A stretch of DNA of 231 nt from Escherichia coli (lineage in GTDB: Bacteria; Pseudomonadota; Gammaproteobacteria; Enterobacterales; Enterobacteriaceae): the NCBI RefSeq assembly GCF_003334785.1, contig NZ_QOWV01000094.1. One strand, given 5' to 3'. Each line of letters begins with the position of its first letter. The stretch's first letter is position 1. Shown one piece after another: positions 1-129 of this stretch. A program made the position numbers and the translations under genes. Below the pieces are notes generated by a model that saw nothing but the letters and a program-made list of their open reading frames with translations, was not told the origin of the DNA and did no database searches.

Positions 1-15
1 ATTTTCCCGTTAACA

Positions 16-41
16 CGCGGGCAAGTAATCCGGGGCCCGCG
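16..41. repeat. GC-rich inverted repeat / stem-loop: CGCGGGC (16-22) pairs with GCCCGCG (35-41), 12-nt loop aagtaatccggg
   Basis: Seven consecutive G:C pairs verified base by base. Lies 10 nt downstream of the minus-strand small-ORF stop codon. Not followed by a U-tract on either strand, so it is not a canonical intrinsic terminator. Confidence 0.45.
26..41. repeat. copy 1 of a ~15-nt direct repeat motif TAATCCGGGGCCCGCG (minus-strand reading CGCGGGCCCCGGATTA)
   Basis: First 8 nt (TAATCCGG) are identical to copy 2 at 141-148; the GC-rich remainder matches with 1-2 indels. Spans the loop and 3' arm of the 16-41 hairpin. Confidence 0.4.
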
Positions 42-51
42 ATACCACGCT

Positions 52-129
52 CTATCGGGCGGGACGGCGCCGGTGCTCAGAGAGCAGCCTTTCCAGCTCA
101 GCGATGCGAATGAGGTATTTCTGACTCAT
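52..129 (-). CDS. small ORF, 25 aa hypothetical peptide MSQKYLIRIAELERLLSEHRRRPAR (ATG at plus 127-129, TAG at plus 52-54)
   Basis: ATG-initiated ORF in the same minus frame as the upstream ORF. GC by codon position across 52-129 is about 65/42/69%. The N-terminal 13 codons use common enteric codons and read like an amphipathic helix. The C-terminal tail uses rare codons (AGG, CGG, CCC, CGA) and an amber stop, and no Shine-Dalgarno is visible upstream (aaaaacggccATG), so it may be a fortuitous ORF or a gene remnant. Confidence 0.3.
   Translation of the reverse strand: MSQKYLIRIAELERLLSEHRRRPAR

Follow-up and report, generated by a model that had tools for sequence, protein, structure and literature searches.

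A GC-rich, arginine-rich ORF tail in Escherichia coli as the probable product of a frameshifting 505-bp deletion in an ISEc47-family insertion sequence

The 231-nt window, by which is meant the whole stretch of DNA that was analysed, very probably lies in a defective insertion sequence copy of the IS66 family, ISEc47 family, with tnpA-tnpB-tnpC on the minus strand, in which a 505-bp deletion within tnpC would have given rise to a chimeric 25-aa ORF (probability about 0.93 for this joint reading of element, deletion, and ORF). The first-pass annotation had singled out a GC-rich block that contains a palindrome and coincides with the arginine-rich, rare-codon tail of this ORF, and had suggested a noncoding element at its 3′ end. 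The outcome is a clean negative: the anomaly of composition and the rare-codon tail appear to have marked a deletion junction and frameshift in a known mobile element. Where codon usage changes abruptly inside a short ORF, this would be a useful sign of a junction in a pseudogene and not of a regulatory element.

Identity of the element

The entire window is an exact substring of the chromosome of ETEC TW10722 (NZ_CP035841.1; locus L002, positions 3950-4180), a strain that was used in human challenge (PMC6844497). In a megablast search of complete E. coli genomes, 3,019 carry window-related sequence, with 8,401 matching places in total, and among the matches listed the underlying features bear the names ‘IS66-like element ISEc47 family transposase’ and ‘IS66 family accessory protein TnpB’. 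The best matches to the window show 100% identity but consist of two pieces covering 736 bp. Of the noncoding element, binding site, or repeat remnant that had been proposed, the repeat remnant is borne out by this recurrence of IS66 sequence, and the noncoding character and the binding site are not.

The proteins encoded by the TW10722 copy are recognized by family models to differing degrees. The TnpC remnant, 351 aa in its true frame, scores 371 bits against NCBIfam NF033517 (transpos_IS66, cut-off 180), compared with 451 bits for the intact sibling TnpC; Pfam DDE_Tnp_IS66 matches the intact TnpC protein with E = 2.8e-97. TnpB (PGAP CDS WP_000624688.1, L002 4109-4459, beginning at window position 160) scores 119 bits against NF033819 (IS66_TnpB, cut-off 50). 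The TnpA candidate is a 144-aa ORF (L002 4456-4890) that overlaps tnpB by 4 nt, and its best model, NF047595 (IS66-like TnpA), gives 68.7 bits, slightly below the cut-off of 74.

Terminal inverted repeats starting 5′-GTAAGCG are a hallmark of the IS66 family. The defective copy spans L002 2940-4975, or 2,036 bp versus 2,541 bp in intact copies, and keeps both termini, GTAAGCG...CGCTTAC. The ends of this copy, of an intact plasmid copy of ISEc47 (L001), and of an intact sibling in TW10722 (L013) read GTAAGCGTCAACGG... on the left and ...CTTTACGCTTAC on the right. A perfect 8-bp target duplication, CGTTTATA, surrounds the defective copy, and two intact copies are bounded by 8-bp target duplications of their own, CGGCACTG and AGTATGAC.

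Similar to the IS66 group comprising ISEc47, ISEc23, ISEc8, and IS679 (ISfinder names as applied by PGAP), the TW10722 copy has the gene order tnpA-tnpB-tnpC, in which tnpA is a candidate, a TnpB and a TnpC that match curated IS66 models, termini starting GTAAGCG next to an 8-bp target-site duplication, and 99-100% nucleotide identity to ISEc47-family copies. The main differences are that it is without 505 bp of tnpC (residues 19-186, with the leucine zipper and the zinc finger) and is frameshifted, and that, as judged from its reading frames, a full-length transposase is impossible for it to make, which would leave it nonautonomous at best. By this comparison, the copy is a defective member of the IS66 family that lacks an autonomous transposase gene. 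Such a member is already known and is no departure from known concepts: RefSeq annotates the gene as a pseudogene (PGAP EXA02_RS09240, ‘missing N-terminus’, incomplete ISEc47 family transposase, L002 2970-4025), the upper end of which is window position 76.

Table 1. Features assigned to the window (positions counted from its first letter).
Feature	Position	Strand	Basis
tnpB 3′ end, last 23 codons (...AMLLDKLDWRQPKTSRLNALTML), stop at 160-162	160-231	minus	PGAP CDS WP_000624688.1, NF033819
tnpB-tnpC spacer, 30 nt, with short hairpin	130-159	minus	sequence, folding, four diverged relatives
Genuine tnpC 5′ end, codons 1-17 and first base of codon 18	78-129	minus	identity to intact ISEc47
tnpC ATG	129-127	minus	N-terminus as in intact 537-aa TnpC
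Deletion junction, 4-bp microhomology TGCT, one copy kept	74-77	.	comparison with intact copies
Distal tnpC remnant, TnpC residues 187-211 (APAPSRPIERGIAGPGLLARVLTGK), running past the window edge	1-76	minus	translation of minus-strand frame 2
GC-rich block, true-frame codons GCA CCG GCG CCG TCC CGC CCG = TnpC 187-193	56-76	minus	sequence
8-bp palindrome CGGCGCCG	65-72	.	present; by-product of codons CCG-GCG-CCG
Chimeric 25-aa ORF, 18 genuine TnpC residues and 7 out of frame, TAG at 52-54	52-129	minus	sequence

The deletion junction and the sibling copies

By exact matching to the intact plasmid copy L001, window positions 1-77 correspond to L001 3001-3077 and positions 74-231 to L001 3579-3736. 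The two segments, which share TGCT at window 74-77, lie 505 bp further apart in intact ISEc47. In intact copies TGCT is found at both breakpoints, at 3074-3077 and 3579-3582 in L001 and at 4084-4087 and 4589-4592 in L018, and comparison with L018, the closest intact variant, places the breakpoints identically. Window positions 78-129 are 100% identical to intact ISEc47 tnpC (L001 3583-3634). Missing from the window copy are nucleotides 57-561 of the tnpC CDS, which encode residues 19-186. As aligned with the intact copies, the change of composition around position 77 turns out to be the junction of a 505-bp deletion, a point that the first-pass annotation had missed.

Intact TnpC comprises 537 aa, to which Pfam assigns an LZ_Tnp_IS66 domain (60-130), a zf-IS66 domain (138-182), a DDE_Tnp_IS66 domain (196-486), and an IS66 C-terminal element (494-530). 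The loss of residues 19-186 would thus eliminate both N-terminal domains, the leucine zipper and the zinc finger, and the remnant at window 1-76 represents the DDE_Tnp_IS66 domain at its N-terminal border (Pfam, NCBIfam). Because 505 mod 3 = 1, the reading frame shifts after the junction.

An internal 505-bp deletion with 4-bp TGCT ends would have removed tnpC codons 19-186 and joined codon 18, with a shift of one base, to the sequence for residues from 187 on. The segment Ala-Pro-Ala-Pro-Ser-Arg-Pro-Ile, which is conserved and GC-rich, would then be translated in the wrong frame up to a stop codon, appearing as an arginine-rich tail of rare codons, and the copy would now be nonautonomous. The single TGCT that is kept points to a deletion mediated by microhomology, whether through replication slippage or through illegitimate recombination, a suggestion drawn from the 4 bp of microhomology alone; at least 4 bp of microhomology would be expected at a random junction with a chance of ~0.016. 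As in other pseudogenes formed by microhomology-mediated deletion, the TGCT repeat is present at both ends in intact copies and in one copy at the junction; the homology here is only 4 bp, and the mechanism is deduced from sequence. A break initiated by a transposase or a nuclease and followed by end-joining-like repair would leave a junction that cannot be distinguished from that of a slippage-type deletion.

The TW10722 chromosome record contains 8 matching places. In one of them (L013, region 1243-4694) an intact sibling copy is inserted in rpnC, splitting this gene between panC and panD, so a full-length TnpC would be available in trans. Downstream of the junction, the remnant differs from the rpnC sibling at 14 of 1,087 nt (13 of the 14 differences in CDS, 4 non-synonymous, with no stop codons), and upstream of the junction at 2 of 953 nt; divergence from ISEc47 is 1.3% and 0.2%, respectively. 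The closest intact element, L018 of strain JNE070796, shows 1 mismatch in 1,087 nt and 2 in 953 nt and occupies a different site. The uneven divergence had prompted consideration of a mosaic of two IS66 variants; the intact JNE070796 element fits both parts, and a simple internal deletion is enough. Since the differences are mostly synonymous and the downstream frame is open, the comparison suggests a recent deletion of a JNE070796-type variant rather than long decay.

Two side observations concern these strains. JNE070796 is an O166:H15 strain from Japan. TW10722 appears to hold at least two ISEc47-family sequence variants, in view of the uneven divergence from the sibling and of a closest intact relative that is found elsewhere.

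The distribution of the junction bears on whether it is real. A 48-nt probe spanning it (window 52-99), each flank of which is too short to seed alone, matched 1 of 5,426 complete E. coli genomes, the TW10722 chromosome; it matched 0 of 72,556 plasmids, and no match was found in the collections of species-representative genomes or metagenomes. A deletion known from a single assembly could be a 505-bp gap introduced in assembling a multicopy IS, with an intact tnpC at the true locus, and an element found 8 times in one record is the classic source of such trouble. This explanation is nevertheless judged quite unlikely: the copy carries its own SNP pattern, as seen in the 14 differences from its sibling in the same genome, it has unique flanks and a perfect target duplication, its breakpoints share microhomology typical of real deletions, and when repeats are misassembled, whole copies are normally collapsed or exchanged, and not shortened internally by 505 bp. 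With a genuine deletion as the preferred reading, the junction sequence unique to TW10722 could serve as a strain-specific marker, without evident biological significance.

The GC-rich block and the chimeric reading frame

The GC-rich block had been placed at positions 55-75, which are indeed 86% GC; the string quoted for it, cgggcgggacggcgccggtgc, occupies 56-76, one base away, and is 90% GC, compared with 55% for the whole window. The reported difference in composition from the N-terminal part of the ORF also holds, with 77% GC at 52-77 versus 50% at 78-129. Of all 21-mers in the intact tnpC, the block has the highest GC content, among the top 3 of 1,594 windows, and when the window is shuffled by mononucleotides, a 21-mer of equal GC content occurs in 13.5% of cases. 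The perfect palindrome CGGCGCCG is confirmed at the positions given, at the level of chance: a shuffled 231-nt sequence is expected to contain 0.89 8-bp palindromes, and one or more turn up in 59% of the shuffles. Neither the GC richness nor the palindrome is by itself beyond chance. A repeat search of the window returned only short, chance-level repeats, none of which touches 55-76.

In the true frame of tnpC, the block reads GCA CCG GCG CCG TCC CGC CCG ATA, which encodes APAPSRPI (TnpC 187-194), followed by ...ERGIAGPGLLARVLTGK. The GC richness stems from the encoded amino acids, since positions 1 and 2 are occupied by G or C in the codons for Ala, Pro, Ser (TCN), and Arg (CGN), and the palindrome stems from the Pro-Ala-Pro codons CCG-GCG-CCG. 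By the Kazusa K-12 table, the true-frame codons are mostly common in E. coli. Of the 7 codons of the tail, to which rare codons had been attributed, 3 are rare by the same table, CGG, CCC, and CGA, and the impression of rarity arises because the shifted frame contains these three.

Codon-position variation was compared in an alignment of the homologous 300 nt from 11 IS66-family elements ranging from 100% down to ~70% identity, which include ISEc47, ISEc23, ISKox1, and others from Klebsiella, Enterobacter, Salmonella, and E. coli. In the tnpC frame of the block (window 55-76), the columns that vary are 1 of 8 at position 1, 1 of 7 at position 2, and 7 of 7 at position 3, with mean pairwise differences of 0.02, 0.03, and 0.67, respectively. 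In the frame of the small ORF (window 52-77), they are 1 of 8, 9 of 9, and 1 of 9; third codon positions of tnpC fall on second positions in the small ORF. Ten of the 11 relatives have the peptide APAPSRP unaltered and the other has APVPSRP, and the palindrome is kept in only two, ISEc47 and ISEc23. By this pattern, the block is ordinary, strongly constrained TnpC coding sequence for the motif APAPSRPIERGIAGPGL, which is strongly conserved in TnpC.

The third-position variation in the tnpC frame implies that the block is neither an element conserved at the nucleotide level nor coding sequence of the small ORF. A noncoding GC-rich element into which the small ORF runs, such as a protein-binding palindrome or a repeat remnant, would agree with a block that is the GC-richest of tnpC, that holds a perfect palindrome, and that recurs many times per genome, the last because the IS itself is repeated. 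It is considered extremely improbable in the face of variation confined, apart from one column each at positions 1 and 2, to tnpC third positions, a peptide conserved down to 70% DNA identity, a palindrome lost from most of the relatives, and the roughly 0.9 palindromes of this length per window expected by chance. The codon-independent conservation for which the first-pass annotation had proposed a test at 55-75 is contradicted by these data, and the codon-aware variation that it had named as the sign of ordinary coding sequence is seen in the tnpC frame and not in that of the small ORF. A secondary DNA-level role on top of coding would be compatible with comparative data alone; the poor conservation of the palindrome counts against it. 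A genuine 25-aa small-protein gene with an unusual choice of C-terminal codons is hardly credible either: its ATG is a real, translationally coupled tnpC start, from which the peptide may be made, but the ORF is present in one genome only, its tail was apparently created by a frameshifting deletion, the homologous DNA changes fastest at the second codon positions of the ORF, and no family match was obtained from NCBIfam.

The preferred reading, a chimera produced by the deletion, accounts for each part of the ORF. Its 25 residues are MSQKYLIRIAELERLLSEHRRRPAR, of which the first 18, MSQKYLIRIAELERLLSE, are the true TnpC N-terminus (junction bases included). The tail that follows the junction, CAC CGG CGC CGT CCC GCC CGA TAG, encodes the HRRRPAR* ending that had been read on the minus strand and is the DNA of TnpC 187-194 one base out of frame; the suspicion that it is not optimised coding sequence of the ORF proves right in this sense. 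The ORF is thus best described as an accidental chimera made by a frameshifting deletion. It shares with other frameshift-derived chimeric ORFs in pseudogenes a genuine start and N-terminus, a short out-of-frame stretch, atypical codons, and a premature stop, and nothing distinctive sets it apart from this textbook case. As one later account (PMC3469429) summarises Han et al. 2001 (J Bacteriol 183:4296), translational coupling is reported to underlie the expression of the three IS66 proteins, and the 25-aa peptide would for this reason probably be made as a by-product upon expression of the IS operon.

The tnpC start and the surroundings of the defective copy

The 30-nt spacer between tnpB and tnpC contains no Shine-Dalgarno sequence before tnpC. 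In the minus-strand mRNA, GGCCG (150-146) can pair with CGGCC (134-130) around an 11-nt loop, forming a hairpin that adjoins the tnpC AUG; in the window copy this hairpin has 5 bp only and a fold z of -1.2. Four diverged IS66 relatives (L014-L017) have a hairpin at the same position with different stems (AACCGC/GCGGUU; AAGCCUG/CAGGCUU), with fold z-scores of -5.9, -3.3, -3.8, and -1.7, and the AUG is sequestered in the hairpin in 3 of the 4. RNAalifold folds the five sequences with 9 pairs, of which 5 show changes on both sides. The hairpin at the tnpC AUG, as seen in these five sequences, and the missing Shine-Dalgarno sequence are consistent with the reported tnpB-tnpC translational coupling.

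A scan of the window found no promoters or terminators. Promoter-like hexamers, TTGTAA and TATAAA separated by 17 nt, are observed on the minus strand at window 165-137, where they overlap the tnpB stop and the hairpin loop; the consensus scan passed over them, since A is the last base of the -10 hexamer. With these hexamers, transcription would begin roughly at the tnpC AUG and yield a leaderless transcript. The TTATAAA part is kept in ISKox1 and in a Klebsiella relative.

Since both termini, the candidate tnpA, tnpB, and the coupled tnpC start are kept, the deleted copy could conceivably act as a nonautonomous element mobilised in trans by intact ISEc47 copies, and its products could also modulate IS66 transposition, although this is regarded as a long shot. 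If such modulation occurred, the candidate products would be TnpA, TnpB, the 25-aa peptide, or an N-terminally truncated protein with the DDE domain only. A 331-aa minus-strand ORF that starts at a GTG at window 16-14 (L002 2970-3965) represents such a putative DDE-only TnpC, devoid of both the leucine zipper and the zinc finger; it has no evident ribosome-binding site.

The surroundings of the defective IS (L002 1-2000 and 4900-8048) are those of a degraded island, in which its neighbours include a frameshifted GIY-YIG nuclease gene, a partial ShlB/FhaC-family gene, an inovirus-type Gp2 gene, and genes for a toxin-activating acyltransferase and for zinc-ribbon proteins. On the plus strand, an ATG-started ORF of 263 aa (L002 3653-4444) runs antisense to tnpC and tnpB, crosses the junction, and covers the whole window; its existence probably follows mechanically from the codon structure of the opposite strand.
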